Shown in pieces: positions 1,695 to 58,752 of a stretch of DNA of 59,070 nt (its first letter is position 1; each line of letters opens with the position of its first letter). Location: assembly GCA_036407055.1 (NCBI GenBank), contig DASWZY010000128.1, positions 1 through 59,070 of the forward strand, given 5' to 3'. Made by a program: the position numbers and the translations under genes. The notes under the pieces were generated by a model. The model searched no databases. It was not told where the DNA came from and saw nothing but the letters and a program-made list of their open reading frames with translations. This DNA comes from Candidatus Binatia bacterium. GTDB lineage: Bacteria; Desulfobacterota; Binatia; UBA9968.

Positions 1695-1706
1695 GGAACA
1701 CATCCC

Positions 1707-3179: not shown

Positions 3180-3190
3180 ACGGAGGAACC

Positions 3191-4186: not shown

Positions 4187-4250
4187 ACTTTTCTTTCGGT
4201 CGGCAGCGTCCTTCTCACCGTCGCTGATGGTCCTCTGAACATCACTGGTA

Positions 4251-6790: not shown

Positions 6791-6806
6791 TCCGATGGGA
6801 GTCACC

Positions 6807-9761: not shown

Positions 9762-9765
9762 AGAA

Positions 9766-10956: not shown

Positions 10957-10974
10957 CTGAGCCCAGGAGCAAGG

Positions 10975-12741: not shown

Positions 12742-12743
12742 GC

Positions 12744-16480: not shown

Positions 16481-16494
16481 ACCGAGACACCTCC

Positions 16495-18402: not shown

Positions 18403-18440
18403 CAAATTGTCACAAGGCTGATGAGTTCCGGAGGTAGCCT

Positions 18441-20761: not shown

Positions 20762-20788
20762 TTTACACCGATTTGCAATCTTCACGCG

Positions 20789-24093: not shown

Positions 24094-24134
24094 CGATCAC
24101 GCACCGACCCGATTCGCCATAAATTTCGAATCAA

Positions 24135-25175: not shown

Positions 25176-25202
25176 CGCGGCTCAAGACATCGGAGATCGT
25201 CA

Positions 25203-25919
25203 ATGAACGAAGAAAACATAACGGTGTCGGATCTCGAAATCATGGCGCAAGCGCACAACTACCGCAGTTGGATGTTTCGGCAGATAGCTCCCTTCATCGG
25301 CCGGCGGATTTTAGAAATCGGCGCGGGCATCGGCAATTTTACGAACCTCATGCTCGACCGCGATCTGGTGGTCGCCGCCGACGTCTACCCGCCGTGTGTG
25401 GAATATCTGGAAAAACGTTTTGCCGACAAACCCCACGTGCTGCCGAGGCGGTTGGATGTCGCCGATCCGGCGACGACCGCTTTGGGAAAGTACGATTTAG
25501 ACACGGTCGTTTGTCTGAACGTGCTGGAGCACGTCGAAGACGACATCGGCGCGCTTTCGCATATGTTCGCCGTGCTGCGCAGCGGCGGCAGTCTCGTATT
25601 GCTCGTGCCGGCTTTTGAATTTTTATTCGGGACAGTCGACTCGTCGTTGGGTCACCACCGGCGCTACACCAAACCGCCGCTGGTGCAAAAAATGCGACAG
25701 AGCGGCTTTGCCATCGAGAAGGTCTTCTATATGAACCTCATCGGCATAGCCGGCTGGTTCCTCAACAATCGCGTGTTCAAGAGAACGGAAGAGTCTCCGA
25801 AACAGATCGCGCTCTTCGACCGACTGATCGCTCCTGTAGCGGAACGTGCCGAAAAGTTATTCCAGCCGCCGATCGGCCTTTCCTTGATAGCCGTCGGCCG
25901 CAAAACTACTGTTTCATAA
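25203..25919 (+). CDS. Class I SAM-dependent methyltransferase
   Basis: RILEIGAGIGNFT (motif I), VVCLNVLEHVEDD, LRSGGSLVLLVP. Confidence 0.85.
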   Translation: MNEENITVSDLEIMAQAHNYRSWMFRQIAPFIGRRILEIGAGIGNFTNLMLDRDLVVAADVYPPCVEYLEKRFADKPHVLPRRLDVADPATTALGKYDLDTVVCLNVLEHVEDDIGALSHMFAVLRSGGSLVLLVPAFEFLFGTVDSSLGHHRRYTKPPLVQKMRQSGFAIEKVFYMNLIGIAGWFLNNRVFKRTEESPKQIALFDRLIAPVAERAEKLFQPPIGLSLIAVGRKTTVS

Positions 25920-25933
25920 AACGGAAGCTCAGC

Positions 25934-27643: not shown

Positions 27644-27730
27644 CGGCTCCCCAAGCGCTCCGAACGAGAAGGACGTCCGATTCGCGACATTCGCGTCCGT
27701 CGCTCGCTAGCTGAGCAGAAAGTTACGACG

Positions 27731-29461: not shown

Positions 29462-29523
29462 GTCCGGAAGTCTTAAATCCGGAAACTCGCCAGTCGTACT
29501 CTCCGCGTCTGTAAGGAGCGCTC

Positions 29524-31431
29524 ATGTGCGGCATCGCCGGTAGCCTTAATTTGAATCCGTCTTTGCGCGTCGACGAGGCGCGAATCAAACGCATGCGCGA
29601 CGTTTTGCGCCACCGCGGTCCCGATGGCGCCGGTTTGTGGATCGACGGATCGGTCGGCCTCGGCCATCGCCGGCTCTCGATCGTAGACCTCGCCGGCGGC
29701 CGCCAGCCGATGGCGAACGAGGACGAGTCGGTGTGGATCACCTACAACGGTGAAATTTACAACCACGCTGCGCTGCGCCCGGTTCTCGAAGCGGCCGGAC
29801 ACATCTACCGCACGCGGAGCGATACCGAGACGATTCTCCATCTCTATGAAGAAGAAGGCGAGCGCTGCCTGGAAAAGCTTCAGGGGATGTTCGCTTTCGC
29901 GATCTGGGACAAAAGGCAGAGCCGGCTGCTGCTCGCACGCGACCGGCTCGGCATCAAGCCGCTGTATTACGCGATTACCGATACGGAAATCGTTTTCGCG
30001 TCGGAGATCAAGGCGATCCTCGCCTCGGGCGCGCTTCGCCCGGAATTCAACGAAGCCGTGCTGCCGGAATTTCTGGCGAATCGATTCGTCGCGGGCGACG
30101 AAACTTTCTTCCGCGGCATCCACAAGCTCATGCCCGGGCGGATACTTTCATGGTCAGCGGCGACCGGTGTCCAGCTGCGGCGCTATTGGAAATTGCCGGC
30201 AGCGGACGAGCGGAGCGACATTTCTCTTGAAGAAGCGGCAAACGATGTGCGCGAGCGGCTTTCGGCTGTGGTTCGAAGCCATCTCATGAGCGATGTGCCG
30301 CTGGGGCTTTTTCTTTCCGGCGGGCTCGATTCGAGCGCGATCGCAGCGCTCATGGCGCCGATGGTCCGCGAGCCGATCCGGTCTTTCTCGGTCGGCTTCG
30401 CCGAAGCCGAAGCGAACGAGCTCGGGTACGCGCGTCTGGTCGCGCGCGCCGTCGGCGCCGAACATCGCGAGATCGTGCTCCGTCCGGATGAATTTTTCTC
30501 GGCCCTGCCGAATCTCATCTGGCACGAGGACGAGCCGATCGCGCATCCGTCTAGCGTGCCGCTCCACTTTGTCTCGCGCCTGGCGCGGCAGCATGTGAAA
30601 GTCGTGCTCACAGGCGAAGGCTCCGACGAGCTGTTTCTCGGTTATCCGTGGTACCGCGCCACGGTTTGGAACGAGCGCCTCGGGCGAATGTATTTTCCCT
30701 TCATGCCCGAGAAGCTCCGCTTGCGGGCCAAAGCTATGGCGCGGCGATTGCCGCGGCGTCTCAGGCGGTATACCGAACGGAGCTTTCTCGCCCTCGATCC
30801 CGGCCCGCGCGGCCTTTTCTACGAGAATTTCGCAGTCTTTTCCGACCGCCAGCGCGCCGTCATCCTCGCGGACCGCGAGCTCGCCGGAAGCGATCCTTAC
30901 ATCGAGTGTCTCCGCCGCTACGACGAAGGCGAGGGCGACACGCTGGCGCGCATGAGCGCGGCCGACTTACAGACCTATCTCGTCGAGCTGTTGATGAAAC
31001 AGGATCAGATGAGCATGGCGGCCTCGATCGAGAGCCGCGTGCCGTTCCTCGATCATGCATTGGTCGAGCATGTCGTGCGGCTGCCGAGTCGTTTGAAGGT
31101 GCGCGGCCTGACGACCAAAGCGGTTCTCCGCGAAGCCGTCAAGGATATTGTCCCGAAGGAGATCCTCACGCGCGGCAAGATGGGCTTTCCTGTCCCCATG
31201 GGAAAATGGCTTCGCGGCGCGTTCGCGCCGCTCGTCGACGAGTTCGTCCTGAGCCCGCGCGCGCGCGAGCGCGGGATTTTCAATCGCGCGGCCGTCGAGC
31301 GCCTAGCGGAGGAGCATCGGACCGGCGCACGTCCGCACGGCGACCGGCTGTGGCTATTGATCAATCTCGAAATGTGGCAGCGGATTTTCCTCGACGGCGA
31401 AGACCGCAGCGTCGTTCTTCGCGCGGCATGA
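29524..31431 (+). CDS. Asparagine-synthase-like glutamine amidotransferase (copy 2)
   Basis: MCGIAG start, PP-loop FLSGGLDSSAIAA. Alignable along its full length with copy 1. Confidence 0.9.
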   Translation: MCGIAGSLNLNPSLRVDEARIKRMRDVLRHRGPDGAGLWIDGSVGLGHRRLSIVDLAGGRQPMANEDESVWITYNGEIYNHAALRPVLEAAGHIYRTRSDTETILHLYEEEGERCLEKLQGMFAFAIWDKRQSRLLLARDRLGIKPLYYAITDTEIVFASEIKAILASGALRPEFNEAVLPEFLANRFVAGDETFFRGIHKLMPGRILSWSAATGVQLRRYWKLPAADERSDISLEEAANDVRERLSAVVRSHLMSDVPLGLFLSGGLDSSAIAALMAPMVREPIRSFSVGFAEAEANELGYARLVARAVGAEHREIVLRPDEFFSALPNLIWHEDEPIAHPSSVPLHFVSRLARQHVKVVLTGEGSDELFLGYPWYRATVWNERLGRMYFPFMPEKLRLRAKAMARRLPRRLRRYTERSFLALDPGPRGLFYENFAVFSDRQRAVILADRELAGSDPYIECLRRYDEGEGDTLARMSAADLQTYLVELLMKQDQMSMAASIESRVPFLDHALVEHVVRLPSRLKVRGLTTKAVLREAVKDIVPKEILTRGKMGFPVPMGKWLRGAFAPLVDEFVLSPRARERGIFNRAAVERLAEEHRTGARPHGDRLWLLINLEMWQRIFLDGEDRSVVLRAA

Positions 31432-32636
31432 CCATGCGCGTACTGTGGCTCAATGTCGGCGGTCTGTGGCCGCTCAACACCGGCGGCAGGCAGCGGAGTT
31501 TTCATATCATCTCCGAGCTGTCGCTCCGCCATCGCCTGACGGTCCTCACCACCGAAGGCGCCGGCGACGATCACGCGGCGCTGGCCGCGCAGCTGCCACG
31601 GTGCGACGTAATCTCCGTGCCTTACGCGCTGCCCAAGCGCGGCAGCGCGGCGTTCGGGCTGGCACTGTTGCGCTCATGGGTCTCGGAGCTGCCGGTGACG
31701 CTCTGGAAGTGGCGCATTCCGGCGCTGCAGAGAGAAGCCGGGCGGATGCTAACGCCTGAGCGCATCGACCTTTGCGTCGTCGATTTTCTCTACGCCGCGC
31801 CCAACCTGCCGCGCGACGTCGCGGTTCCGACCGTGTTGTTCGAGCACAACGCCGAATACCTTATCTGGAAACGATTGTACGAAGCCGAGCAGCGCCCCTT
31901 CCGGCGCGCATTGTTGGAGATCGAGTGGAAAAAACTCCGGCGCGCCGAAGCCGCGGCTTGCGCGAAAGCGGCGATGACGCTCGCGGTATCGGAAAACGAC
32001 CGGGCCGCGCTGCTCGAAGCTGCGCCTCGCGCGCGCGTGCGCGCGATTCCGACGGGCGTCGATACCTCATATTTTCACCCGAACGGCACGCGCCACTCCG
32101 CCGCTAAGCTCGTCTTCAGCGGATCGATGGATTGGTATCCGAACGAGGAAGCGATGCTCTATTTCATCGACTCGGTGCTGCCGCTGATCCGCCGTGCGAT
32201 TCCCGAAGCGTCGCTGACGGTGGTCGGGCGCAATCCGAGCGCGCGGCTCCGCGCCGCGGCGAACGGCGCGGTCCACGTAACCGGCACGGTCGAGGACGTG
32301 CGGCCTTACATCGACGAGGCGGCCGTTTACGTCGTGCCGCTCCGCATCGGCGGCGGCACGCGCATCAAGATATTCGAAGCGCTGGCGATGGGAAAAGCTG
32401 TGGTATCGACGCGGATCGGCGCCGAAGGACTGCCGTTGAGCCCGGGCGAGCATTTCGTCGAGGCCGAGGGGCCCGAGGAATTCGCCCGCGCCGTGGTCGA
32501 GCTCATTCGCCGACCGGAGCGGCGCCGTGCCATCGAGCAAGCAGGACGGAAACTGGTCGAAGAGCGCTACTCGTGGAATCGGGCGGCGCGAGAATTTGAA
32601 CTACACTGCGAGGAGGTCATCAACGATGCGGGTTAG
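31428..32636 (+). CDS. GT4 (GT-B) glycosyltransferase, 'stp1'-like
   Basis: MTMRVLWLNVGGLWPLNTGGRQRSFHIISELS N-terminus. FEALAMGKAVVSTRIGAEGL. ATGA overlap with the AsnB-2 stop. The track's 30648 start lies inside AsnB-2. Confidence 0.85.
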   Translation: MTMRVLWLNVGGLWPLNTGGRQRSFHIISELSLRHRLTVLTTEGAGDDHAALAAQLPRCDVISVPYALPKRGSAAFGLALLRSWVSELPVTLWKWRIPALQREAGRMLTPERIDLCVVDFLYAAPNLPRDVAVPTVLFEHNAEYLIWKRLYEAEQRPFRRALLEIEWKKLRRAEAAACAKAAMTLAVSENDRAALLEAAPRARVRAIPTGVDTSYFHPNGTRHSAAKLVFSGSMDWYPNEEAMLYFIDSVLPLIRRAIPEASLTVVGRNPSARLRAAANGAVHVTGTVEDVRPYIDEAAVYVVPLRIGGGTRIKIFEALAMGKAVVSTRIGAEGLPLSPGEHFVEAEGPEEFARAVVELIRRPERRRAIEQAGRKLVEERYSWNRAAREFELHCEEVINDAG

Positions 32637-33939
32637 CGTATTTGGGCTGGGTTATGTGGGATGCGTCACGGCCGCGTGCCTGGCGAAGGCCGGCCACCAG
32701 GTTATCGGCGTCGATATCACTCCGGAAAAAGTCGTGATGCTGAACGACGCGGTGCCGCCGGTCGTGGAGCCGGGCCTCGGAGAGGTCCTGGCGGAAGTCG
32801 TATGGGATAAACGTCTGCGCGCCATTTCCTCCACGGAAAACGCCGTGAAGGAGACCGAGCTCGCGCTCGTCTGCGTCGGAACGCCGAGCCGCTCCAACGG
32901 GCGGCTGGACATCAATGCCGTCGAGCGCGTCGCGCACGAGATCGGCGCGGCGCTCGCTGCGCGCTCCGATCCGTTCACCGTCGTGCTGCGGAGCACCGTG
33001 CTCCCCGGCACGACAGAGCAGACTTTTATTCCCGCGCTGCTGAGCGGCGCCGGACGAGGACTCGATTCCTCGCTGCGCGTTGCCGTGAACCCGGAATTCA
33101 TGCGCGAAGGAAGCGCGCTCAAGGATTTCGCCCATCCGCCGTTCACTCTCGCCGGCACGGGCGACGAGGAGACGGTCGAGCAGCTGCGCGACCTTTATGC
33201 CAGCCTTGAGTCGCCATTTGTTCCGACCACGATCCGAACCGCCGAGATGCTGAAATACGTTTCCAACACGTTTCACGCGCTCAAGATCGCCTTCGCGAAC
33301 GAGATTGGCGACGTCTGCGCCGCCTTCGGCGTCGACCCGCAGGAGCTCATGCGTATTTTTATGATGGATCGCAAGCTCAACATCTCGGAAATGTATCTCC
33401 GTCCGGGCTTTGCCTTCGGCGGCTCCTGCCTGCCGAAAGATTTGCGCGCGCTCATCTACGCGGCGCGGTCGGCGGATGTCGCCGTGCCGCTGCTGTCCTC
33501 GATTCTTCCGTCCAACGACGGCCAGATCCGCGAGCAGGTCGACGCCATCTTGAAAACGCGGAAGCGTAAGGTCGGCATCGTCGGCCTTTCCTTCAAGCCT
33601 GCAACCGACGATCTGCGCGAAAGTCCCATGGTGACTCTGGCGGAGGCGTTGATCGGAAAAGGCTGCGATGTCCGCATCCTCGACCGAAATGTCTCGCTCG
33701 CCCGGTTGATGGGCGCGAACCGGCGCTACATTGAGGAGGAAATACCGCACATCTCCTCGCTCATGTGCGAAAACGTCGAAGACCTGCTGGCGCACGCCGA
33801 GGTCATCGTTATCGGCAACGCCGACGCGGAGGCGGCGGCGACGCTGGATGCCGCGACGCCGGGGCACCTCGTCATCGACCTTACACGCGGCATGGTGCGC
33901 AAGAAGAAGCTCGAGCGGCGATTCGAAACGGCCGCGTAA
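32626..33939 (+). CDS. Nucleotide-sugar 6-dehydrogenase, closest by eye to GDP-mannose 6-dehydrogenase (AlgD-like)
   Basis: MRVSVFGLGYVGCVTAACLAKAGHQVIGVD, VCVGTPS, NPEFMREGSALKDF, RPGFAFGGSCLPKDLRAL, LSFKPATDDLRESP. As I recall it, these align almost residue for residue with P. aeruginosa AlgD. GAGGAGG SD upstream of ATG 32626. Confidence 0.8.
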   Translation: MRVSVFGLGYVGCVTAACLAKAGHQVIGVDITPEKVVMLNDAVPPVVEPGLGEVLAEVVWDKRLRAISSTENAVKETELALVCVGTPSRSNGRLDINAVERVAHEIGAALAARSDPFTVVLRSTVLPGTTEQTFIPALLSGAGRGLDSSLRVAVNPEFMREGSALKDFAHPPFTLAGTGDEETVEQLRDLYASLESPFVPTTIRTAEMLKYVSNTFHALKIAFANEIGDVCAAFGVDPQELMRIFMMDRKLNISEMYLRPGFAFGGSCLPKDLRALIYAARSADVAVPLLSSILPSNDGQIREQVDAILKTRKRKVGIVGLSFKPATDDLRESPMVTLAEALIGKGCDVRILDRNVSLARLMGANRRYIEEEIPHISSLMCENVEDLLAHAEVIVIGNADAEAAATLDAATPGHLVIDLTRGMVRKKKLERRFETAA

Positions 33940-33967
33940 GAATATTTTCAAGGAGGATGAACGAGCC

Positions 33968-35161
33968 TTGTTGAATATCAATGTCCAACAGTATTGCGGT
34001 GAAAAGGCTCTGCGCGTCACGGCGCTCCAACTCCGCACCGCCGGACTTTTGTCCACGGCGTTCCCGGGCATGGATCCTGAATTTCTCGCCGAAGGCTTTG
34101 AAGGGCAGAACCCGGGTGCAATGGTTGCCTGCCGCGAGAGCGTGCCCTTGGCGTACATGACCTATGCGGTGCGGTTAAAGCATTTCCGTGCGGCGATCGG
34201 GCCATTATCATTCGGGCACTTGCCCGTAAAACAGCTCAGGATCTTCGGCGTTATCGGCTCTCCGCCCGAAAGCGTCATCGACGAGTTCTTGCGGCAGCTC
34301 CTGGTTCAAAAGGAATGGGACGTCGCAGAAATGGTCGAATTAGCGCCCCATGATCCTCTTGCGGTGCGTCTAGCTTCCTTACGTCTGCCACGCGGCTTTC
34401 GGATCATCCGTAAAGAGGTGCCCACGGTTCAGGTAAAACTCGACGACACATTCGAAGATTACCTACACAACCGCTTTCATAAGAAGGCCCGGTACAATCT
34501 CAAGCGCGAGGTTCGGCTGCTCGAAGAAGCTGCGCCCGGACAAGTCCAGATGAAGATCTACCGCTCTCCGGAAGACGCGGCGCCCTTCCTCCGGGACGCG
34601 GAAAACATCGCCCGCAGGAGCTATCAATGGAAAATGGGGATGACTACCGTGCATATGACGCCGGAAAATGTGCAACGAATGTCGTACATCGCGCGCGGCG
34701 GGAAGCTGCGCAGCTACATCTTATATATTCGTGGCGTCCCGGCCGCTTACTGCTATGCGTCGATTCGCCACGGCGAATTGGCTTACCAAACCGTCGGGTA
34801 CGACCCACAATTCGCCAAGCTCAATCCAGGCAAGGTGCTTCTGTTTAAAATTTTGGAAGATCTTCACAAGAACCGGGTTGTGGGTGCGCTCGATTTCGGC
34901 CGGGGCATAACCGACTACAAGCTTCTATTCGCAAACGCCGAGCGACCGTTGATCGATCTTAGTCTCTTTCCGCAGAACTCCTATTCCCAATTTCTTTGGC
35001 TGCTGGCGACCGCTACGGACGAAGGATACCGCCGATTGCGCCCGATCGTTCGTCAGTGGATGCCTTGGATTAAGCGGAAAGTCCAGAAAACGCTCGGCCT
35101 GCTGCTCCCCGGCCTAGTCGAGGAGCATGAAATCCTTCTTAACTTGACGGCACTGAATTAA
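33968..35161 (+). CDS. FemAB/CelD-like GNAT acyltransferase (copy 2)
   Basis: KKARYNLKREVRLLEEA, NPGKVLLFKILEDL, ALDFGRGITDYKLLFAN. Start is uncertain: TTG 33968 lies 11 nt after AAGGAGG. The first in-frame ATGs are further downstream. Confidence 0.65.
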   Translation: MLNINVQQYCGEKALRVTALQLRTAGLLSTAFPGMDPEFLAEGFEGQNPGAMVACRESVPLAYMTYAVRLKHFRAAIGPLSFGHLPVKQLRIFGVIGSPPESVIDEFLRQLLVQKEWDVAEMVELAPHDPLAVRLASLRLPRGFRIIRKEVPTVQVKLDDTFEDYLHNRFHKKARYNLKREVRLLEEAAPGQVQMKIYRSPEDAAPFLRDAENIARRSYQWKMGMTTVHMTPENVQRMSYIARGGKLRSYILYIRGVPAAYCYASIRHGELAYQTVGYDPQFAKLNPGKVLLFKILEDLHKNRVVGALDFGRGITDYKLLFANAERPLIDLSLFPQNSYSQFLWLLATATDEGYRRLRPIVRQWMPWIKRKVQKTLGLLLPGLVEEHEILLNLTALN

Positions 35162-35196
35162 AACTATGGCGACATGGGATTGCCGCCCGAGATTTT

Positions 35197-36411
35197 ATGG
35201 CAATAGACATCGTACAGATTTTTGATTGTTTAACGCTGCTGTCCTTCGGACTGATATTCTACACTTATGCAGGATATCCCGGACTTCTGTGGATGTTGAG
35301 TAAGCTGGCGGGTAAACCCGAGCAGTCTTCGAGCGCACCACCGCAGTGGCCGGCGGTTAGCATCCTCATTTCCGCATACAACGAAGAACGCGCGATCCGC
35401 GCACGCATCGAGAATCTCTTGCAGCTCGACTACCCGAAGGACCGAATCGAGATTCTCGTCGGCTCGGACGGTTGCACCGACCGCACCGCTGCGATCGTTG
35501 CGTCTTATCCCGGCATTCGCCTGCTCGACTTCGCTCAGAGACGCGGCAAGGCCAGCGTCCTCAACGATCTCGTAGCGGCGGCGCGTAACGAGATCGTGGT
35601 TTTGACGGATGCCAACACGTACTTTCGCGCCGACGCGGTGCGGGAACTCGTGCAGGCACTTTGGCGCTATCCTTTCGGATCGGTCGTCGTCGGCCGACTC
35701 GAGCTCAGGTCGTCGGCCGATAAAGGAAACCTCGACGGCGCCTATTGGCGGTATGAGACGTGGATCAAGACGCTCGAGTCGCGGTTCGGCAGCCTGTTGG
35801 GCGCGAACGGCGCCATCTACGCATTCCGCCGCGACCGTTACAGACGCGTTCCGGCAGAGGCGATCGTCGACGATTTCCTCATTCCCATGCTTATGCGGCG
35901 CGATTGCGGCGATCGGACTTTCTTCGTCCCCGCGGCGCGCGCATGGGAGGAGTCGCCCGAGGAGGTCAAGCACGAGTTTCGCCGCCGGGTCAGGATCGGC
36001 GCCGGCGATTTCCAAGCCTTGAAATGGACATGGTCTCTGCTGTTGCCGACGTATGGGATGACCGCGCTGATCTATTTCTCTCACAAGGTGCTGCGCTGGC
36101 TGGGACCGTGGTTCCTGTTGGCGGGATTGATCGGCACGGTAACGCTGCTCGACGAGCCGCTGTTTCAGTTTTTGCTCGTGGGACAGGTTATTTTTTATGC
36201 CCTGGCCGTCGCGGGCACGACTCTCAGGCCTTTGCCGGCCATCGGCGGTTTGGCCGTGGCGGCGCGCTATTTCGTGATCCTTAACGCGGGGCTATTTCTT
36301 GGTCTCGTGCGGCTGAGCCTTGGCGCGGCGCGGCCGACATGGGCGACCGCGCCGCGCAAGACCCTGGACATGGAGGGCCGACGCTTACACGCTAAGGCGT
36401 CCGTGAAATGA
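35197..36411 (+). CDS. Integral-membrane GT2 glycosyltransferase (synthase-like, TM helices at both ends)
   Basis: VSILISAYNEE, LVGSDGCTDRT, VLTDANTYF, FRRRVRIGAG (QxxRW-like position), N-terminal and C-terminal TM helices. Confidence 0.8.
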   Translation: MAIDIVQIFDCLTLLSFGLIFYTYAGYPGLLWMLSKLAGKPEQSSSAPPQWPAVSILISAYNEERAIRARIENLLQLDYPKDRIEILVGSDGCTDRTAAIVASYPGIRLLDFAQRRGKASVLNDLVAAARNEIVVLTDANTYFRADAVRELVQALWRYPFGSVVVGRLELRSSADKGNLDGAYWRYETWIKTLESRFGSLLGANGAIYAFRRDRYRRVPAEAIVDDFLIPMLMRRDCGDRTFFVPAARAWEESPEEVKHEFRRRVRIGAGDFQALKWTWSLLLPTYGMTALIYFSHKVLRWLGPWFLLAGLIGTVTLLDEPLFQFLLVGQVIFYALAVAGTTLRPLPAIGGLAVAARYFVILNAGLFLGLVRLSLGAARPTWATAPRKTLDMEGRRLHAKASVK

Positions 36412-45098: not shown

Positions 45099-46370
45099 TC
45101 ACGGCATGCGATGTTCGCCGGTGATCAGGCGCGCCGCGCGATACTTGCGAAAATAAGCCCAACCCCATTGGATGAGCACGAGGAGCTTGTTTTCGAATTC
45201 GATGAGATTAGCGATGTGCACGAAAAGCCACGCGAGCCAAGCGAAAAAGCCGGCGAGATGAAATCTTTTTAGTCTCGCCACTGCCGTTCCGCGTCCGACT
45301 ATCGCCATGTCGCCGCGGTCGTGATAATGGAACGGTTCGCTCGATTTTCCCTCGAGACGTTCGGCGATTACCTTGGCGACGTACTCCCCCTCCTGTATCG
45401 CCACCTGCGCGACGCCCGGGAGCGGCGAGCCGGTCTGATGCGAGTAGCTGGCAAGATCGCCGATGACGAAGATCTCCGGATGAGACGGCAGCGTCATGTC
45501 GGGCTCGACCAGCACGCGGCCCGCGCGATCCAGCTTCGCGCCGGTCGCGTCCGCCAGAATTTTTCCCAAAAACGACGCTTTGACGCCGGCCGCCCACAGC
45601 GTGGTGCGGCACGGGATTTCTTCATTCCGCTGTCCTTCTTGAACCACGACGCAATCGCGCCGTATGTCCGTGACCGTGACCCGGGTACGAACCGTCACGC
45701 CTTCCTTGATGAGAAACGACGCCGCCTTCGCGGAGAGGTCGGGGGGATACGTGGGCAATATCCGGTCGGCCGCTTCGAGCAGCTGTATCTTGGCGGATGC
45801 GGGATCGATCGCGCGAAAATCGTTCGTCAGAATATCCCGCGTGATTTCCGCCAGCGCGCCGGCGAGCTCGACGCCCGTCGGACCGCCGCCGACGATGACG
45901 AAGTTCAGAAGCGACTTTCTTGTGTCGGCGTCGGGTTCCTTTTCCGCAGCCTCGAAGGCGAGGAAAATCCGCCGGCGCATCTCCGTCGCGTCCTCGATCG
46001 TCTTAAGCCCGGGCGCGAGCGCTTCCCACTGATCGTGGCCGAAATAGTGATGGCGCGAGCCTGTCGCCACGACAAGCGTATCGTAAGGCACGCTGCCATC
46101 GCTTAGAATCACCTGCCGGGCGCCCACATCGATGTCGATCGCCTGGCCGAGGAGCACGCGCGCATTTTGCTGCCGCTTCAGTACGGAGCGCAGGGTAGAC
46201 GCAATGTTGGCGGGCGACAGCCAGCCGGTCGCCACCTGATAGAGCAGCGGCTGAAAAAGATGAAAATTTCGCTGGTCGAGGAGCGTCACCTCCACAGGCG
46301 CGTTCTTCAAGGACTGCGCGGCGTAAAGGCCGCCGAAGCCTCCCCCAATGATAACGACGCGATGAGCCAT
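45099..46370 (-). CDS. ndh: Type II NADH dehydrogenase (NDH-2)
   Basis: VVIIGGGFGGLYAAQSL and VIVGGGPTGVELAGAL dinucleotide folds, IFVIGDLA, C-terminal amphipathic/hydrophobic tail. Confidence 0.85.
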   Translation of the reverse strand: MAHRVVIIGGGFGGLYAAQSLKNAPVEVTLLDQRNFHLFQPLLYQVATGWLSPANIASTLRSVLKRQQNARVLLGQAIDIDVGARQVILSDGSVPYDTLVVATGSRHHYFGHDQWEALAPGLKTIEDATEMRRRIFLAFEAAEKEPDADTRKSLLNFVIVGGGPTGVELAGALAEITRDILTNDFRAIDPASAKIQLLEAADRILPTYPPDLSAKAASFLIKEGVTVRTRVTVTDIRRDCVVVQEGQRNEEIPCRTTLWAAGVKASFLGKILADATGAKLDRAGRVLVEPDMTLPSHPEIFVIGDLASYSHQTGSPLPGVAQVAIQEGEYVAKVIAERLEGKSSEPFHYHDRGDMAIVGRGTAVARLKRFHLAGFFAWLAWLFVHIANLIEFENKLLVLIQWGWAYFRKYRAARLITGEHRMP

Positions 46371-46386: not shown

Positions 46387-47187
46387 CTATTTCTTCTCGC
46401 CGATCGCCGCCGTCCAGAGATCGGTCTCGATGCGGGTCATATTGCCTTCCGGCTCGAGGCGGGCATCGAGGTAACCCCATTGCTGGATGTCGATGAGAAA
46501 TTGCTCCCGCGAAAGAAGCGTTCCCCGACATATCCGTGTTTCGGGCGGCGGTGAAGCAGTCTCTTCTTTCAGCGCGTCCGCCAATCGCTCCACGACGCGC
46601 GCCGGAATGTCCGCGCGATGCGACGGATAAATAAAACCGAACAGCAAAACGTAGCCGTAGAGCACACGCCAATGGGGGCCGAACCGGCGCAGGAGCCGGT
46701 CCCAGTCGAGCTGTTTCGCGCGCGCGCGCAGTAGATGAGCGATATCGGCGCCGTCGTAGCGCTCGCGCTCCATCACGTACGATTTGGACCAAATCGTCTC
46801 CTCGACAGGACAAAGCTTCACGCGGTAGCCGAGTATTTCCCCGTCCACGCCGTAACGAAACCATTCGTCGTCGACCCGTGCCGTGCCGTTGCCCGAGCTG
46901 AAGATCAGGTCGGCGAAATATTCTCCGCAATAGGCTTTGCCGAGCCAGTGCGGAAAGGTCAGCTCCGTATGACAGCCGATGCCCGCAAGGGCGTCGAGCG
47001 CCCGCTTGCAGTCCTGCGGATGAATGAAGACATCGAGATCTTTCGTGTCGCGCCAAATCCCGGTGTAGCACTCGAGCGCATAAGCGCCGCCGATCAAAAA
47101 CGGTACGCCGCTTTCGGTCAGCTTGGTCAACACGCGGACGTAGAACTCTTTTCCCGCATTCCGGACTTCGTCACCGTCGCCGTTCAC
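46387..47187 (-). CDS. Uncharacterised nucleotidyltransferase-like protein
   Basis: PFLIGGAYALECYTGIWRDTKDLDVFI resembles the GG...D.D signature of the minimal nucleotidyltransferase fold. ATGA overlap with the upstream phosphoesterase. Confidence 0.5.
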   Translation of the reverse strand: MNGDGDEVRNAGKEFYVRVLTKLTESGVPFLIGGAYALECYTGIWRDTKDLDVFIHPQDCKRALDALAGIGCHTELTFPHWLGKAYCGEYFADLIFSSGNGTARVDDEWFRYGVDGEILGYRVKLCPVEETIWSKSYVMERERYDGADIAHLLRARAKQLDWDRLLRRFGPHWRVLYGYVLLFGFIYPSHRADIPARVVERLADALKEETASPPPETRICRGTLLSREQFLIDIQQWGYLDARLEPEGNMTRIETDLWTAAIGEKK

Positions 47188-47972
47188 GTCCGCACCTCAC
47201 GGCTCATTCCATTGCCCTCGTCCGCCCGCGCCTCGGCGGGAATCTCGACGAGGCGGAAAACCGGCTGATTGGGGAAGTGTTGCCTGAGGACCTTGATCGC
47301 CACGTTGTAGACGGGCACTCCGGTCTGCGTCCGTCCCTCCGGGCGGCCGTGATGCGCATGACCATGAAATACAGCGGTCACGCCGTAGCGATTCAGCGGC
47401 TCTTCGAGACGGCTCGATCCGAGAAACGGATAGATCTGGCTCGGCTCCCCTTCGACAGTGGCGGGGATGGGAGAATAGTGCAGCAGCGCGATGCGGTGCT
47501 GCGTGCGCAGCTTGGCGAGCGCGGACTCGAGCTTCAACGCCTCGTCGATCGATTCCTGAACGAACTTCTTGATCGCCGGCTCTCCCCAGGGCTGAAGCGA
47601 GTGCTGGCCGAACCCGCCAGCGAAGCCCTTGACGCCGGCGAAGCCGATGCCGTGCACCTCGCAGGCATTGCCGTCGAGAATATTAACGCCCGCGCCCGCT
47701 AGAATCTTCTGCACCTCGTCCTGTTTGCCGGATTCCAACTCGTGGTTGCCCAGCACCGCCAGCATCGGAACTTTCACCACGGATAATTCTTTGGCGAGAA
47801 CCTCCGTCTCCTCCGGCAAGCCATAATCGACGAGGTCGCCGCAGAGAAGGAGGATATCGGCATTGTCGGCGATCTGCTCGAATATCGGCTGCAGTTGTCC
47901 GTGCGATGTCTTCGTATAATGGAGATCGCCCATCGCCGCTAGGCGCACCGAATTCTGCTGCTTGGTTTTCAT
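47184..47972 (-). CDS. Calcineurin-like metallophosphoesterase
   Basis: MGDLHY, LLCGDLVDYG, LGNHE, FHGHAHHG. Start at ATG 47972 (ATGA overlap with the CBS stop). The track's extension to 48242 lies inside the upstream gene. Confidence 0.85.
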   Translation of the reverse strand: MKTKQQNSVRLAAMGDLHYTKTSHGQLQPIFEQIADNADILLLCGDLVDYGLPEETEVLAKELSVVKVPMLAVLGNHELESGKQDEVQKILAGAGVNILDGNACEVHGIGFAGVKGFAGGFGQHSLQPWGEPAIKKFVQESIDEALKLESALAKLRTQHRIALLHYSPIPATVEGEPSQIYPFLGSSRLEEPLNRYGVTAVFHGHAHHGRPEGRTQTGVPVYNVAIKVLRQHFPNQPVFRLVEIPAEARADEGNGMSREVRT

Positions 47973-48676
47973 GTCGAAATCCCCTTTCGCGCGTCGTCGC
48001 GCGCGGATGCGGCGGCTCCGTCGTTGAGAGATCCGATCAGCTTTCCGTCGGGCGTCGTTACGAGCAGCGAGCGCATTTTCTTGCGCTCGAGCATTTTCAC
48101 CGCGTCTTCCACGGGCATACTCGGCCGGACCGTCGTCGGCCCCGGCTCCATAACCAGCTCGACCGCGATCGACGGATGGGCGTGGAGCGAGACGCGCGTA
48201 CAAAGGCCCAAGAGGACGCCGGCGTCGTTGACTACGGGACAAATATCCATGCCGCGGTCGTAAGCTGCGTCACGCGCGGCGCCGATCGGATCTTCCGGCC
48301 GGCAACGCGGCACATCCCGCTCGATCACGTCGCTCACGAGCGGCGGCAGCTCGCGGCCGCGAACGATCGGCAGGTCGAAGGCCATCCATTCGGCTTTTCC
48401 GCCTTCGTAAGCGAAAACGTGCATATATCCCATATACTCGAGCCGCGCCGCGGCCCTCCGGCTCAGATCTCACTGCGAGTCGTAGCAGTAAACGACCGTA
48501 AGTCGATCCTTGGCAAGGGCGTTCGCGGAGAATGGATAGAGGTCGGTAAGCGGCAAACTGATCGCTTCCGGCAAATGCGCTCGGTCGTATTCCTTTCGCG
48601 GCAGCACTTCCACGAGAACAGCGCCGTTCGCCGTCAATCCGTGCAACTCTTCGAGTCCGATTACCTGCATTGCCAC
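47969..48676 (-). CDS. Rhodanese + tandem-CBS protein interrupted by one in-frame TGA (48470-48472): candidate selenoprotein, alternatively a pseudogene
   Basis: ORFs 48470-48676 and 47969-48433 are in the same frame. Joined translation: ...RLTVVYCYDSQ[TGA]DLSRRAAARLEYMGYMHVFAYEGGKAEWMAFDLP..., i.e. one continuous rhodanese domain followed by two CBS motifs. selC is present in the window. Confidence 0.6.
48440..48464 (-). promoter_or_regulatory. GC-rich hairpin starting 5-6 nt downstream of the in-frame UGA (possible bacterial SECIS)
   Basis: mRNA after UGA: GAUCU-GAGCCG-GAGGGCCGCGGCG-CGGCUC-GAG. GAGCCG and CGGCUC are perfect complements. An alternative stem, GGGCCG/CGGCUC, has a CGGCG loop. 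Confidence 0.35.
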
Positions 48677-48677: not shown

Positions 48678-50423
48678 TCAGATAAGCTCTCGCACTTTGT
48701 CGGACAGCACCGTCCATGCGATCTTCGACCTGTCGGGCTCCCCGCGCGCGAGCGATCTCGCGAATTTGGTCGCCTGCTCGAGCGTCACCTTGGCGGGCAT
48801 AGGCGGCTCGTAGGGATCTACCACCGCCTGGACGATGACCGGACCGGGAGCGGCAAGCGCCTCGTCGAGCACGCGGCCGCACTCGGCCGGATCTTCGATC
48901 GTGAAGCCCGCGCCGCCGCACGCGCGCGCAAACGCCGCAAAATCGATCGGCTGCAGATCGCAGCCGTATTCGGGGTTGCCGAGGAAAACCATCTGCTCCC
49001 ATTTGATCTGCCCCAGGGCGTTGTTTTTAACGATCACGACTTTAATCGGCAGGCGGTATTTTACCGCCGTCGCGAATTCCGCCATCAGCATCGAAAATCC
49101 GCCGTCGCCGACGAACGCGACGCACTGCCTTTCAGGATAGGCGATCTGCGCCGCGATCGTGTACGGGAGCGCATTCGCCATCGACGCGAGCGTTCCCGAG
49201 ACCGAGAACTTCTGGCCGCGCCGCACGGGTATCAACCGCGCAAACCAGGTCGTAATCGTGCCCGAGTCGCACGAGACGATCGCTTCCGGAGCGAGGCGTT
49301 TGCCAAGCTCCCACGCGACGACTTCCGGCTTCATCGGCTTGTCGGGACGCGTTCCCTGGGTTTCCATCAGCTTCCACCACTGGCGCATACCTTCCTGCGC
49401 TTTTTCCAGGAAGCTGCGGTCGCGCTTCCGCTCCAGCAGCGGTAAAAGCCGCTTCAATGTGGCGCGGCTGTCGCCGACGAGACCGACCTCGACCGGATAC
49501 CGGAGTCCGATGCGCGTCGGATCCATATCGATTTGAACGCCGCGCGCCTGTCCCGGCTTGGGCAGGAATTCCATGTAAGGAAACGAGCTGCCGACGATGA
49601 AAAGCGTATCGCAGTCCTCCATCGCCTCCTGCGACGGCCTCGTACCCAGAAGACCGATTGAGCCGATCGTGTAAGGACTGTCGTCGGGAACCGCCGCCTT
49701 GCCGAGCAGCGCCTTGACGATCGGCGCGGCCAATTTCTCCGCAGCCGCCTCCAGCTCCGCGCCTGCGCCGAGCGCGCCTTGGCCGGCGAGGATCGCGACT
49801 TTCTTTCCTTCGTTGAGTTCCGCGGCGGCGTTCCTCAAGGCGGTTTCCGGCGGCAGCTCGACGACCGACGCGGGGGCGTGCGAAACATGCCCCGGGACAT
49901 TGCGCTTCGAATGCTCCTCGATCTCCTGCTCCTGGAAATCGATAGGGAAGTTGATGTGCGCAACGCCGCGGCGGCCGAGCGCGGTGCGGCAGGCGATATT
50001 CGCGATTTCCTCGACGTGCGACGGTCCCATGACCCGCGCATTATAAAGCGCGACGTCCATGTAAACCTTGTCCAAATCGACGTCTTGCTGCGCATGCGTA
50101 TCGATAAGGTCGTGATAGTGGTGTCCGGTGATCGCAAGCACGGGTTGGCCGTCGAGCTTCGCATCGTAAAGACCGTTCAGGAGATGAATGCCGCCCGGCC
50201 CGGAGGTCGCGAGGCTAACGCCGAGCTTCCCGGTATATTTCGCGTAGCCGCACGCCATGAACGCGGCGGACTCTTCGTGCCGCACTTGCACGAAGCGGAT
50301 GTTTTCCCGTTGCTTGCGCAGCGCTTCCATGATGCCGTTGATGCCGTCGCCGGGAAGGCCGAACACGACGCTGACGCCCCATTCGCAGAGCGTCTCAACG
50401 AGCACGTCGGCCGCGGTTACCAT
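48678..50423 (-). CDS. Thiamine-pyrophosphate enzyme of the pyruvate oxidase / PoxB / acetolactate-synthase family
   Basis: FGLPGDGINGIMEAL, VRHEESAAFMACGYAK, TSGPGGIHLLNGLYDA. TPP motif GDGGFSMLMAEFATAVKYRLPIKVVIVKNNALG. Confidence 0.8.
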   Translation of the reverse strand: MVTAADVLVETLCEWGVSVVFGLPGDGINGIMEALRKQRENIRFVQVRHEESAAFMACGYAKYTGKLGVSLATSGPGGIHLLNGLYDAKLDGQPVLAITGHHYHDLIDTHAQQDVDLDKVYMDVALYNARVMGPSHVEEIANIACRTALGRRGVAHINFPIDFQEQEIEEHSKRNVPGHVSHAPASVVELPPETALRNAAAELNEGKKVAILAGQGALGAGAELEAAAEKLAAPIVKALLGKAAVPDDSPYTIGSIGLLGTRPSQEAMEDCDTLFIVGSSFPYMEFLPKPGQARGVQIDMDPTRIGLRYPVEVGLVGDSRATLKRLLPLLERKRDRSFLEKAQEGMRQWWKLMETQGTRPDKPMKPEVVAWELGKRLAPEAIVSCDSGTITTWFARLIPVRRGQKFSVSGTLASMANALPYTIAAQIAYPERQCVAFVGDGGFSMLMAEFATAVKYRLPIKVVIVKNNALGQIKWEQMVFLGNPEYGCDLQPIDFAAFARACGGAGFTIEDPAECGRVLDEALAAPGPVIVQAVVDPYEPPMPAKVTLEQATKFARSLARGEPDRSKIAWTVLSDKVRELI

Positions 50424-50521: not shown

Positions 50522-51400
50522 TCAGCTCGCTTTGCGCCGTCTCGGAGTCTCCTCCTTCCGCCCCGCCTGCTCGACGCTGCGTTTCAACAGATCCATGATG
50601 TCGATCACCTTCGCCCGCCGCTTAGGCGCTTGCGGCCGCGCTTCGTCGATGACCTTCGTCTTGCCTTCCTGCACCTTGCGGTCGATTAATCCCAGCAGGT
50701 CTTCTCTGTAGTCGTCGCGGTACTTTTCCGGTTGCCACTTGTCGGCCATCGCCTCGATTAAACGCTCCCCCATTTTGAGCTCTTTGTCCCCGATCGCGAC
50801 ATCGCCCGGAAGGTCGAGCTCCGACGCGTCGCGCAGCTCGTGCGCGAACCGCAGAAGCTCGAGAACGAGAGCCGACTTTTGCGGGAAGACGGCGGCGAGA
50901 TGCTGTCGCGACCGAATGACGACTTTGGCGATGCCGACGGTTTTTGTCCTGCGCATTACTTCGCGAAGCAGCGCGTAGCTTTTGCCGGCATTTTTCGCGG
51001 GCGCCAAATAATACGGCTTATCGTAGTAGACAGGCGCGATATCGCTCTCGTCGACGAAGTCGGTGATCTCGATCGTTTGCGTCGCCTCGCTGTTCGCCCG
51101 CTCGAAGTCGGCGTCCGTCATCGGCACGTATTCGCCTTTCTCGTATTCGTAACCTTTGACAATGTCGTCCCAAGGCACTTCCTTGCCGGTCTCTTGATTG
51201 ACGCGACGATAATGGACGGGCGCGAGATTTCTGCGATCGAGCAGCTTAAAGCTGAGGTCGTTGGAAGTTTCCGCACCGTGGAGAGTGACGGGAATGTTCA
51301 CCAGGCCGAAGCTCAAGCTGCCGCGCCATATCGCTCGGGAGCCCGTCGATCTCCGTGACGACGCTTTCCGTCGCCTCGCGCGTCTTCCATTGCGTGCCAT
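50522..51400 (-). CDS. ku: Ku (NHEJ DNA-end-binding protein)
   Basis: RAIWRGSLSFGLVNIPVTL, YYLAP, and a basic C-terminal tail. ATG 51400 lies 2 nt after the upstream stop. Unusual Arg-rich 21-aa N-terminal extension MARNGRRARRRKASSRRSTGS. Confidence 0.9.
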   Translation of the reverse strand: MARNGRRARRRKASSRRSTGSRAIWRGSLSFGLVNIPVTLHGAETSNDLSFKLLDRRNLAPVHYRRVNQETGKEVPWDDIVKGYEYEKGEYVPMTDADFERANSEATQTIEITDFVDESDIAPVYYDKPYYLAPAKNAGKSYALLREVMRRTKTVGIAKVVIRSRQHLAAVFPQKSALVLELLRFAHELRDASELDLPGDVAIGDKELKMGERLIEAMADKWQPEKYRDDYREDLLGLIDRKVQEGKTKVIDEARPQAPKRRAKVIDIMDLLKRSVEQAGRKEETPRRRKAS

Positions 51401-51402
51401 AG

Positions 51403-52011
51403 TCAATGCCCGCGAGCCAATGGCGAAAAGTCGGCCGTTAACCGTTCGGAACGGCGGCGGCGCTCCGGCGCCTTGCCTGGCTCATCGTTATCGTAAATAC
51501 GGATGCCGTCGAGACGCTCGAGCCGCTTCAATGGCGCGATCAGATGGCGCGACAGCGCCTCCTGAATTTCGCTTCCCGGCAGGCTCGATTCGCAGAGATG
51601 ATCGATCTCGCCGGAGACCAGCTCGATTCGCTCGACGGCGCAGACTTTTTTATTGCCGTTGCCGTTACCGCGCTCCCGCAGGTAGCTGTAAATCACCTCG
51701 AGCGGATAGCGTGCGCCGACAACCTCGACGAACGCCGGGTCCTCCACCTCGATGCGAGCGAGACAAAGACGGCGGTCGACTGGGACCATGTCATGCGCGT
51801 CGGCGAGGCCGGCCGGAGACCTGCCACCGGGCGCTTCGCGCGCCGCATGCCTAACGGCATCGGCGGCGCAAGCGAGCTCGTGCCATGCATAAACATGGTC
51901 GTAAACATCCTCTAAGGTGGAAAGCACTTCGATGACGTCGCGCACCTCGCTGCAGCGATGATGCGGCAGCGCTATGCGAATCGACATATGGGTATCGTCT
52001 TGATGATTCAT
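51403..52011 (-). CDS. Hypothetical protein (202 aa), no recognisable family
   Basis: GGGGTGA SD 5 nt upstream of ATG 52011. Stop lies 2 nt before the Ku ATG. Contains a GNGNGN stretch and a basic tail. Confidence 0.5.
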   Translation of the reverse strand: MNHQDDTHMSIRIALPHHRCSEVRDVIEVLSTLEDVYDHVYAWHELACAADAVRHAAREAPGGRSPAGLADAHDMVPVDRRLCLARIEVEDPAFVEVVGARYPLEVIYSYLRERGNGNGNKKVCAVERIELVSGEIDHLCESSLPGSEIQEALSRHLIAPLKRLERLDGIRIYDNDEPGKAPERRRRSERLTADFSPLARGH

Positions 52012-53572: not shown

Positions 53573-55558
53573 TCACCGATGGCGACCGGCGAGTTTGCGG
53601 ATGGCGCCGCGAATCGAGCGGCGTGAAGTGAAAAAGTTTGCCCACGGGTCCTTGCGCAGACCCTTGAGGCGCTTACCTACGTTGAGAAGTGTGAAGTCAC
53701 CGGAACCGCCGACGTCGTCGAGATCTTCCCAGCGGAGCGGCATCGATACCGGCGCACCCGGCCGCGCGCGGGTAGAATAAGCCGCGACGGCCGTCGCGCT
53801 GCGGCCATTGCGCAGGTAATCGATAAAGATTTTTCCCGCGCGTTTCGCCTTGGACATGTTCGTTAGGTACCTGTCGGGGGCCTCGCGCGCGACGCTCTCC
53901 GCTACCATCTTGGTAAATTCTTTGGCGTCGTCCCATTGAACCTCAGGGACAATGGGAACAACGACATGCAATCCTTTGCCGCCTGTAGTTTTGACGAATA
54001 CCTCGAGCTCCAATGCCGCGAGGCGGCGCCGCAAAAGCCGCGCCGCCTCCACCACTTGTTTCCACGGCAAACCGGCGTCCGGGTCGAGGTCGAAGATGAG
54101 TTGATCCGGCATCTCCACCCGCTCGGCGCGCGAGCCCCACGTATGTATTTCGAGCACGCCCATTTGTACCAGCGAGATGAGACCCGAAAGCGAATCGATC
54201 ATGACGTACCGGCCCGAGCCTCTGCGCTCCTTTACGTTGATGCGCTTGAATGATTCCGGAAGATTGTCCTCGATGTGTTTTTGATAGAAGCACTTCAGGT
54301 AACCTTCCGGACAGCGCACCATCGTGAGTGGGCGCGACGTAACGTGCGGCAAAATCCACTCGGCTATCTCTTCGTAGTAGCGAGCGACGTCCAGTTTTGT
54401 GATGCCTATTTCCGGGTAAAGAACACGCTCGGGATTGCTGAGCGTAATACCGGCAATGGTTACGTTACGGGAGTTTTGCCCGGCTTTCGTCGGCGGCTGC
54501 TCCGGCAGCTCGCGGGCTATCTTTTGCGGCGATTTGTCTTCACGCAGCCCTTTGAAAGACGGATGGCGCAACATACTGTCGCGGGTCCAGCCGGTGAATT
54601 CGATTTCCGCCGCATGGCGGGGCCGCACCCAGTGAACGCCTTCGCGCCGTGGAAGCCGCGGCGGATTGATGAACGGCGGACTGGACGTTTCGATCTTCTC
54701 CAATCGTGCGCGAAGATCCTCCAAAGAGCGGCGGTTGAACCCCGTGCCAACCTTGCCGGCATAAACCAATTCGCTTCGTTCGTTGTTCACGCCGAGAAGC
54801 AGCGCGCCTAAGCCCGTGCGCGAGCCGGAAGGCTCGGTAAAACCGCCGATCACGAACTCCTGACTCGCATGGCATTTGATCTTGAACCAATCGCGCGCGC
54901 GGCCGGCGCGGTAGACCGAATCCTTGCGTTTGGCGATGATGCCTTCGAGGCCGCTTTGACAAGCTCGCCGATGGAATTCCTTCCCGTTGCCGGTCACGTG
55001 GTCGCTGAAACGAATCGCAGCTGCTTTGCCCCGACGGTCTTCGAGCAGCGGCGCCAGAAGCGTTTTGCGCTCGACCAGCGGCATCACCCTCAAATCATAA
55101 CCGTTGCAGAAAAGAAGATCGAAAACGTAATAGACGAGCCGATGGGTCTCTTTTTGGCCGAGCGCTTCCTGCAGAGATTGAAAATTACTCGACCCGTCCG
55201 ACTCCAGAACGACGATCTCGCCGTCGAGAAACGCTTCCTTCAATGGAAGACGCGCGGCGGACGCCGCCAAGTCGCCGAACCGTTCGGTCCAGTCGTTTCC
55301 TTCGCGCGTAAAGAACCGCGCACGGCCGTCTTCGATCCTGCACAGCGCGCGATAGCCGTCGAATTTGATTTCGTAGAGCCACTCTTCGCCCTCGGGAACG
55401 ACATCGATCAGCGTTGTGAGCTCGGGCTCGACAAATGCGGGCAGCTTCGCGGCGCCAGCGACCGGATGAGGCTTGGTTGCCGAGCTTGCCGATTCTTTAC
55501 GTTTTGATGTTCGCTCGCCTGGCTTGCGCAGTTTTCGCGCCACGCTTCCACCCATCAT
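53573..55558 (-). CDS. ligD: DNA ligase D, two-domain form (ATP-dependent ligase + primase-polymerase; no phosphoesterase domain seen)
   Basis: Ligase motif I LYEIKFDGYRAL. Polymerase-domain strings GITLSNPERVLYPE, RPLTMVRCPEG, LIFDLDP, VKTTGGKGLHVVVP, IFIDYLRN. Confidence 0.9.
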   Translation of the reverse strand: MMGGSVARKLRKPGERTSKRKESASSATKPHPVAGAAKLPAFVEPELTTLIDVVPEGEEWLYEIKFDGYRALCRIEDGRARFFTREGNDWTERFGDLAASAARLPLKEAFLDGEIVVLESDGSSNFQSLQEALGQKETHRLVYYVFDLLFCNGYDLRVMPLVERKTLLAPLLEDRRGKAAAIRFSDHVTGNGKEFHRRACQSGLEGIIAKRKDSVYRAGRARDWFKIKCHASQEFVIGGFTEPSGSRTGLGALLLGVNNERSELVYAGKVGTGFNRRSLEDLRARLEKIETSSPPFINPPRLPRREGVHWVRPRHAAEIEFTGWTRDSMLRHPSFKGLREDKSPQKIARELPEQPPTKAGQNSRNVTIAGITLSNPERVLYPEIGITKLDVARYYEEIAEWILPHVTSRPLTMVRCPEGYLKCFYQKHIEDNLPESFKRINVKERRGSGRYVMIDSLSGLISLVQMGVLEIHTWGSRAERVEMPDQLIFDLDPDAGLPWKQVVEAARLLRRRLAALELEVFVKTTGGKGLHVVVPIVPEVQWDDAKEFTKMVAESVAREAPDRYLTNMSKAKRAGKIFIDYLRNGRSATAVAAYSTRARPGAPVSMPLRWEDLDDVGGSGDFTLLNVGKRLKGLRKDPWANFFTSRRSIRGAIRKLAGRHR

Positions 55559-58657: not shown

Positions 58658-58752
58658 GGAGAAGGAAGCTGCCCGGTGGTGGCGCTGGTCTTCAAAACCA
58701 GTCTGGGTATCGTAAGGTGCCCGGAGGGTTCGACTCCCTCCCTTCTCCGCCA
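58658..58752 (+). tRNA. selC: tRNA-Sec (anticodon UCA)
   Basis: 95 nt. 8-bp acceptor stem GGAGAAGG/CCTTCTCC. 6-bp D stem GCTGCC/GGTGGC with a 4-nt loop. Anticodon stem CTGGT/ACCAG with loop CU-UCA-AA. 7-bp variable arm GGGTATC/GGTGCCC with a GTAA loop. 5-bp T stem GAGGG/CCCTC with loop TTCGACT. Discriminator G and encoded CCA. Confidence 0.93.

Follow-up and report, generated by a model that had tools for sequence, protein, structure and literature searches.

A rhodanese-CBS gene interrupted by an in-frame TGA

We analyzed a 59,070-nt stretch of DNA from Candidatus Binatia bacterium (GenBank assembly GCA_036407055.1, contig DASWZY010000128.1; hereafter the window), in which a gene encoding a rhodanese domain fused to a pair of CBS motifs is interrupted by an in-frame TGA. 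An original prediction, made from the sequence alone, had proposed this TGA as a candidate selenocysteine (Sec) codon. On the minus strand, positions 48676..47969 form a single reading frame whose sole internal stop is the TGA at 48472..48470, confirming that the two open reading frames (ORFs) listed on either side are separated by this codon only. A scan of the window for other TGA-split ORF pairs returned, besides the rhodanese-CBS gene, only the noise expected for GC-rich sequence. The conserved start of the gene is ATG 48670, not GTG 48676: the N-terminus of relatives reads MQ[VLI]IG and their N-terminal pieces are annotated at 66–67 aa, i.e., ATG 48670 is most probably the true start. Because of this start, the complete gene (47969..48670, minus strand) would comprise 233 codons and a terminal TGA, and the protein would count 233 aa instead of the 235 aa given earlier, with the putative Sec-coding UGA (48470..48472, minus strand) as codon 67. 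In this numbering, the cysteine of the rhodanese “YC” motif is C62 and the candidate Sec is U67, five residues further on, at the distance originally described.

We next considered the architecture of the joined product, with Cys substituted at the TGA for Pfam scoring. The protein matched Rhodanese (PF00581) with 47 bits (cut-off 22.2) and, over two stretches, CBS (PF00571) with 55.9 bits (cut-off 24), while the rhodanese domain was incomplete in either half alone, the TGA cutting inside the active-site loop. Read-through had been predicted to restore one rhodanese domain followed by two CBS motifs, with neither half complete by itself, and both Pfam matches agree with this. An AlphaFold2 model of the 233-aa product (mean predicted local distance difference test [pLDDT] 92.1, predicted TM-score [pTM] 0.83) displayed, in order, a strand (residues 58–61), a seven-residue loop (C62-Y-D-S-Q-U-D68), a helix (69–79), and a complete CBS pair. 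This places C62 directly after the central strand and thus in the canonical position, with Sec67 two residues ahead of the helix N-terminus; the loop itself, delimited by DSSP on the model, is encoded at 48467..48487 (minus strand). The CBS pair, or Bateman module, covers about residues 106–233 (47972..48355, minus strand), and the top Foldseek matches were ST2348, CBSX2, and AcuB, all of them CBS-pair proteins, at TM-scores (normalised to the target) of as much as ~0.8. The CBS half dominated this search, which told nothing further about the rhodanese loop.

Conservation of the TGA, the active-site loop and a downstream hairpin

The TGA was found at the identical codon in 12/12 distinct relatives with readable DNA, originating from independent assemblies, and across these 12 lineages the internal stop was always TGA and never TAA or TAG. 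Ten of these sequences are close to the window gene (58–83% identity) and come from Binatia metagenome-assembled genomes, plus one genome labelled Proteobacteria and one labelled Verrucomicrobiia; all ten share the loop context YCYD[SF]Q-TGA-D[LM]SRRAAARL. The other two are distant (~35–40% identity): one, from an Actinomycetota genome (GCA_030155605.1), has the loop YCWDDL-TGA-DMSPRAAWQL, and the other, on a metagenome contig from JGI, has YCWDSL-TGA-DMSPRAACRL. The genomes with the TGA form include GCA_021324155.1 as well. We then estimated ratios of non-synonymous to synonymous substitution rates (dN/dS, Nei-Gojobori) against the window gene for four segments: upstream of the TGA, the 12 codons from the TGA to the next ATG, the remaining rhodanese domain, and the CBS pair. 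Values ranged from 0.13 to 0.57 in each of the four, so that the frame must be translated as a whole and is maintained by selection. In the database search, the 18 closest clusters (60–95% identity) were all C-terminal fragments of 133–165 aa, and full-length homologues appeared only at 33–45% identity.

These full-length homologues carry a cysteine where the window gene has its TGA. In a first alignment of the joined translation, Cys stood under the TGA in 16/17 full-length homologues. A profile search over 1.84 billion representatives then yielded 396 clusters at an E-value of 1e-30 or better, and among 77 non-identical full-length proteins the Sec-aligned column held Cys in 70, while the first cysteine was present in 68. 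Two full-length homologues displayed Trp at the Sec-aligned position, and none of the homologues retrieved was deposited with U. The resulting family consensus, Y-C-x-D-x-x-C-D-[LM]-S-x-R-A-A, matches the “YC....C..S..AA” motif that the original prediction had given, and Y61, D64, D68, S70, and R72 were invariant in alignment A4. Only the Sec-aligned cysteine was kept in 7/77 proteins (P0034, P0186, P0202, P0210, P0226, P0251, and P0252), so that the second loop position can stand alone; only the canonical YC cysteine was kept in another five (P0021, P0188, P0191, P0194, and P0269), and neither in two.

Downstream of the UGA lies a putative core hairpin of a bacterial Sec insertion sequence (SECIS), GGGCCGC-GGC-GCGGCUC (48456..48440, minus strand), which is common to all ten close sequences and occupies +17..+33 counted from the first base (U) of the UGA. 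Consensus limits published for bacterial SECIS elements are a 3–9 nt loop with a G in its first two positions, a 4–16 bp stem, a distance of 16–37 nt from the UGA, and a free energy of −7.5 kcal/mol or lower (PMC13188914). Compared by hand with this model, rather than with bSECISearch, the hairpin falls within all four constraints, with a 3-nt loop (GGC) starting in GG, a 7-bp stem, a 20-nt spacing, and −10.7 kcal/mol. A hairpin shortly after the UGA had been part of the original prediction and is retained here, but not in the pairing first proposed: the outer GAGCCG/CGGCUC pairing was rejected for the inner GGGCCGC/GCGGCUC, as the outer 5′ arm varies among relatives and fails in one of them (L009).

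Since the hairpin stem lies in conserved codons (A73, A74, A75, R76, and L77), we evaluated its conservation at synonymous sites. All five positions used a single codon in all ten close sequences (5/5), compared to 1/47 of the other invariant columns with 4–6-fold degeneracy (Fisher p = 2.3e-6), and synonymous divergence (pS) was lowest in codons 68–79 (0.21–0.43 vs mostly 0.35–0.74 elsewhere). Three Cys-form genes with DNA read served as a control: 2–4 of the 7 hairpin pairs were mismatched in these, and for two of the three, which encode the same RAAARL peptide, the mismatches come from different synonymous codons. Conversely, the distant Sec forms kept the hairpin in register despite an altered peptide: one (L027) has a GUG loop and a stem pair changed from C-G to U-A by compensation, and the other (L029) has a CGUGC loop and an A-U pair in place of G-U, a replacement seen twice among the 12 sequences. 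Over these 12 sequences, 98.8% of hairpin cells were paired, vs 31–51% when the partner was slid by 1–3 columns. The evidence for a functional hairpin is this nucleotide-level freeze together with the Cys-form control, both drawn from sequence comparison.

The window also encodes a tRNA-Sec. ARAGORN and Rfam (RF01852, 74.8 bits) both identified selC, with anticodon UCA, at 58658..58752 (plus strand), in line with the selC gene previously noticed about 10 kb from the TGA. In three relatives (L024, L025, and L026), selC lies next to the same trypsin-like peptidase as in the window, and in two of these (L024 and L025) it shares a contig with the TGA-interrupted gene. Specifically, the 19.4-kb contig of L024 carries the tRNA-Sec/peptidase pair, LigD, DUF2231, Ku, the gene for a thiamine-pyrophosphate (TPP) enzyme, and then the complete TGA-interrupted gene, while the L025 contig ends just past the TGA of the rhodanese-CBS gene.

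Readings of the TGA codon and a proposed mechanism

Taken together, the TGA in 12 relatives, the low dN/dS in all segments, the cysteine in most full-length homologues, the conserved hairpin, and selC uphold the earlier preference for Sec decoding over decay. We consider it very probable that a single gene at 48670..47969 (minus strand) encodes a selenoprotein of 233 residues, in which UGA 67 would be read as Sec by way of SelB and the hairpin. This reading of the TGA as a Sec codon has solid comparative support, and the protein would represent a variant within the rhodanese-type selenoproteins. Several observations weigh against it, or against parts of it. Pfam runs over the scanned large ORFs did not find selA, selB, or selD in the window. 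Covariation in the hairpin is thin, with one compensatory pair and 44/500 shuffles reaching the observed score in a highly conserved element. An Rfam scan of 48380..48520 at a permissive threshold returned no SECIS family and two chance hits only, and an 81-nt fold of the window sequence alone was no better than shuffles (z = −0.32), so that the significance of the hairpin comes from the comparison with relatives. Finally, either cysteine can be lost among the homologues, i.e., C62 and residue 67 need not be an obligate pair.

Among alternatives, the one that survives best, although we regard it as highly improbable, is selenium-free read-through of the UGA, in which near-cognate decoding, stimulated by the downstream hairpin, would insert Trp or Cys. 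Hairpins can stimulate read-through, Trp occupies the Sec position in the two homologues mentioned above, and selC is the only component of the Sec machinery seen in the window. However, the conservation of selC on the same contig argues against this explanation, as do the alternation of Cys and UGA, which is the standard signature of selenoproteins, and a hairpin geometry that fits a SelB-type model.

Marginally less probable still is a true stop, whereby the locus, whether a split gene or a pseudogene in decay, would yield two products: a rhodanese fragment of 66 aa and a CBS protein with a translation start of its own. This is how the locus is annotated by gene callers and in GenBank, and the window does offer an ATG 12 codons downstream of the TGA. 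Such a stop would nevertheless cut the rhodanese domain inside its active-site loop, and it would not be expected to be TGA, to the exclusion of TAA and TAG, in 12 lineages. The restart is not conserved either, with callers choosing M80, M96, or the D-[ML]-S codon depending on the relative. Pseudogene decay is excluded by dN/dS values of 0.13–0.57 in every segment, since purifying selection acts in frame even on the 12 codons that separate the TGA from this ATG.

The two remaining explanations carry practically no weight. A sequencing or assembly error in a TGC or TGT codon has nothing in its favor beyond the single-base distance from Cys, and is refuted because 12 distinct sequences, obtained from different samples and with different assemblers, all carry the identical TGA. 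Likewise, a genome-wide reassignment of UGA to a sense codon, for which we see no supporting point, is refuted because TGA is an ordinary and indeed the commonest stop in the window, where it ends 12/27 Pfam-supported genes, including the rhodanese-CBS gene itself and the upstream TPP gene.

If the TGA is a Sec codon, decoding would follow the established bacterial route: SelB loaded with Sec-tRNA(Sec), whose tRNA is encoded by selC 10 kb away, would bind the mRNA hairpin at 48456..48440, 20 nt downstream, and the complex would deliver selenocysteine at codon 67 so that termination is avoided. As a general rule in selenoproteins, Sec replaces a reactive Cys. From this rule and from the homologues with a lone second cysteine, we infer that Sec67 may be the reactive nucleophile, accepting or transferring a sulfur or selenium atom or cycling via a C62-U67 selenenylsulfide, with C62 as a resolving or auxiliary thiol. 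A nucleotide-responsive regulatory role would then fall to the CBS pair, through which the activity would be coupled to a ligand of the adenosine-nucleotide type. In Binatia, the gene is probably expressed together with its neighbors, which code for a TPP enzyme of the pyruvate-oxidase type, a phosphoesterase, a nucleotidyltransferase, and an NDH-2-like flavoprotein.

Genomic context, spread of the family and comparison with known systems

Across the Binatia group, the rhodanese(Sec)-CBS gene is embedded in a conserved, tightly packed, same-strand string, in the order Ku, a BON-domain or unnamed protein, the pyruvate-oxidase-type TPP enzyme, rhodanese(Sec)-CBS, metallophosphoesterase, DUF2204 nucleotidyltransferase, and NDH-2-like flavoprotein. 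In the window, all of the following genes lie on the minus strand. The upstream neighbor is the TPP enzyme, of pyruvate oxidase/dehydrogenase type (48678..50423), a position it shares with its counterparts in relatives, and the downstream neighbor is the metallophosphoesterase (47184..47972). Translational coupling had been claimed on both sides: the ATGA start/stop overlap with the phosphoesterase stood (47972..47969), while the distance from the TPP stop to the rhodanese-CBS ATG is 7 nt instead of the 1 nt first given. Next comes a nucleotidyltransferase (46387..47187), with a 4-nt overlap between its start and the stop of the phosphoesterase gene; the nucleotidyltransferase is best matched by DUF2204 (PF09970, 23.8 bits, cut-off 20.3) and scores 29.4 bits against NTP_transf_5 (PF14907), under the cut-off of 31.2. 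The last member (45099..46370) is assigned by domain matches to the NDH-2-like FAD/NAD(P) flavoproteins of the disulfide-oxidoreductase family. Its best NCBIfam matches both scored far below cut-off: TIGR03169, named “Nterm_to_SelD”, gave 100 bits against a cut-off of 310, and NF049943, a model for the selenoprotein subtype of SQR, gave 42 bits against 525. Any connection to selenium or sulfide is therefore no more than faintly hinted at.

Other parts of the window were annotated alongside. An end-joining pair formed by Ku (50522..51406, minus strand) and a LigD ligase/primase-polymerase fusion (53573..55558, minus strand) lies between the operon and selC, and the order selC-peptidase-...-LigD-DUF2231-Ku-TPP-rhodanese around this non-homologous end-joining pair is kept in L024 and L025. 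A 202-aa ORF (51403..52011, minus strand), noted as lying between Ku and the TPP gene, had no Pfam or NCBIfam match; its counterpart has a BON domain in L001 and no match in L004. On the plus strand, a long exopolysaccharide-type cluster (684..36411) includes a sugar transferase, a Wzy-like ligase, several glycosyltransferases, a carbamoyltransferase, an asparagine synthase-like protein, GNAT-like acetyltransferases, an AMP-binding enzyme, and a luciferase-like monooxygenase. Besides Ku and LigD, the Pfam runs also identified a two-component system and peptidases.

Outside the close Binatia group, the neighborhoods differ. One distant Sec form lies right after an ArsR-type (HTH_5) regulator and beside CDF and ZIP metal transporters (L029, 307..3879), and a Cys form (contig of P0025) likewise follows an ArsR-type (HTH_5) regulator, beside the alkylmercury lyase MerB. 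For other lineages, these neighbors hint at a link to stress from metals, metalloids, or persulfides. Cys-form genes have neighborhoods unlike that of the Binatia Sec form. The label of “respiratory-type operon” given earlier therefore suits the neighborhood within the Binatia lineage but not the distant Sec forms, and any such link would be lineage-specific.

In public records, the Sec forms appear as fragments. The GenBank record of the same contig holds a 66-aa “rhodanese-like domain-containing protein” (P0314, 100% identical) ending at the TGA (48473..48670, minus strand), and the downstream halves in relatives are deposited as “CBS domain-containing protein”; the 154-aa CBS ORF of the window had no match in the assembly index. 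Among the best 148 representative clusters (50% identity), 65 are ORFs of 150–170 aa starting with “MS[PA]RAA...”, two codons past the Sec position, and these ~65 clusters look like Sec forms annotated as truncated “CBS domain” proteins. Given that a TGA precedes the fragment in 12/12 distinct sequences with DNA read, the Sec form appears widespread. We tentatively suggest, with rather less confidence than for the window gene itself, that these proteins could form a large selenoprotein family outside the current catalogue, of rhodanese-CBS architecture and marked by the loop Y-C-x-D-x-x-U-D-[LM]-S, in which Sec forms would be about as common as Cys forms and the chemistry would differ from that of classical thiosulfate sulfurtransferases. 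From the sequences at hand, this family would extend at least to Binatia and Actinomycetota and would be systematically deposited as a 66–68 aa “rhodanese” plus a “CBS domain protein”. A distinct chemistry is hinted at by the location of Sec, five residues past the canonical catalytic cysteine and in an acidic loop; candidates include an intraloop selenenylsulfide switch, a nucleotide-gated perselenide or persulfide carrier, and a soft-metal/metalloid site.

These observations have practical consequences. With dozens of homologue clusters seemingly cut at the TGA, a whole family would be invisible to domain-based analyses. Sec decoding of the rhodanese-CBS gene would add a selenoprotein to Binatia and Actinomycetota, with a combination of rhodanese, CBS pair, and C-x4-U architecture absent from the 2026 selenoprotein catalogue. 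In addition, the Cys forms, Sec forms, and natural one-cysteine variants offer a ready system to ask which of the loop residues acts as nucleophile in rhodaneses of the C-x4-C type.

That catalogue distinguishes five rhodanese-type selenoprotein forms (PMC13188914): UxxS (form 1, exemplified by Geobacter sulfurreducens WP_010941598.1), UxxG (forms 2 and 4), CxU (form 3, NF041203 “LYCAU”), and UxxxxU (form 5, TsoB, NF045694). The term “CBS” appears nowhere in its text (PMC13188914), and a literature search for a rhodanese-CBS selenoprotein found no paper in the library searched that brings together rhodanese, CBS domain, and selenoprotein. Like the rhodanese-CBS protein, the catalogued proteins carry Sec in or beside the active-site loop of a rhodanese domain, and the loop described here agrees with form 1 (UxxS) in the short local pattern U-D-L-S. 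Form 3 also keeps the “YC” cysteine with Sec downstream, but as C-x-U instead of C-x4-U, and the rhodanese-CBS protein scored 29.2 bits against NF041203 (cut-off 115). TsoB has the same four-residue spacing, as U-x4-U, but is a rhodanese/DsbD fusion, whereas the protein described here has no DsbD part and a single Sec (19.4 bits against NF045694, cut-off 805). The rhodanese-CBS protein further differs in its C-terminal CBS pair, and its C-x4-U motif lies in an Asp-rich loop (Y-C-x-D-x-x-U-D).

The Cys-form rhodanese-CBS proteins (P0019-P0034 and P0166 onwards) are full-length homologues at 30–42% identity with the same architecture and loop, annotated as [quoted passage not shown] and carrying Cys in place of Sec. 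Stand-alone CBS-pair proteins (Arabidopsis CBSX1/2, AcuB, and ST2348) superpose on the C-terminal half (Foldseek E ~1e-9) but are without a rhodanese domain; AMP, ADP, or ATP is bound in several of the matched structures. Among the closest solved relatives by sequence, BH2092 of Bacillus halodurans (PDB 3NHV/3O3W, entries titled only “BH2092 protein”) is the one sharing the motif: its YCWGPAC has the same C-x4-C spacing and aligns without gaps across the loop, in a single-domain rhodanese without the CBS pair, the Sec, or the loop Asp of the rhodanese-CBS protein.

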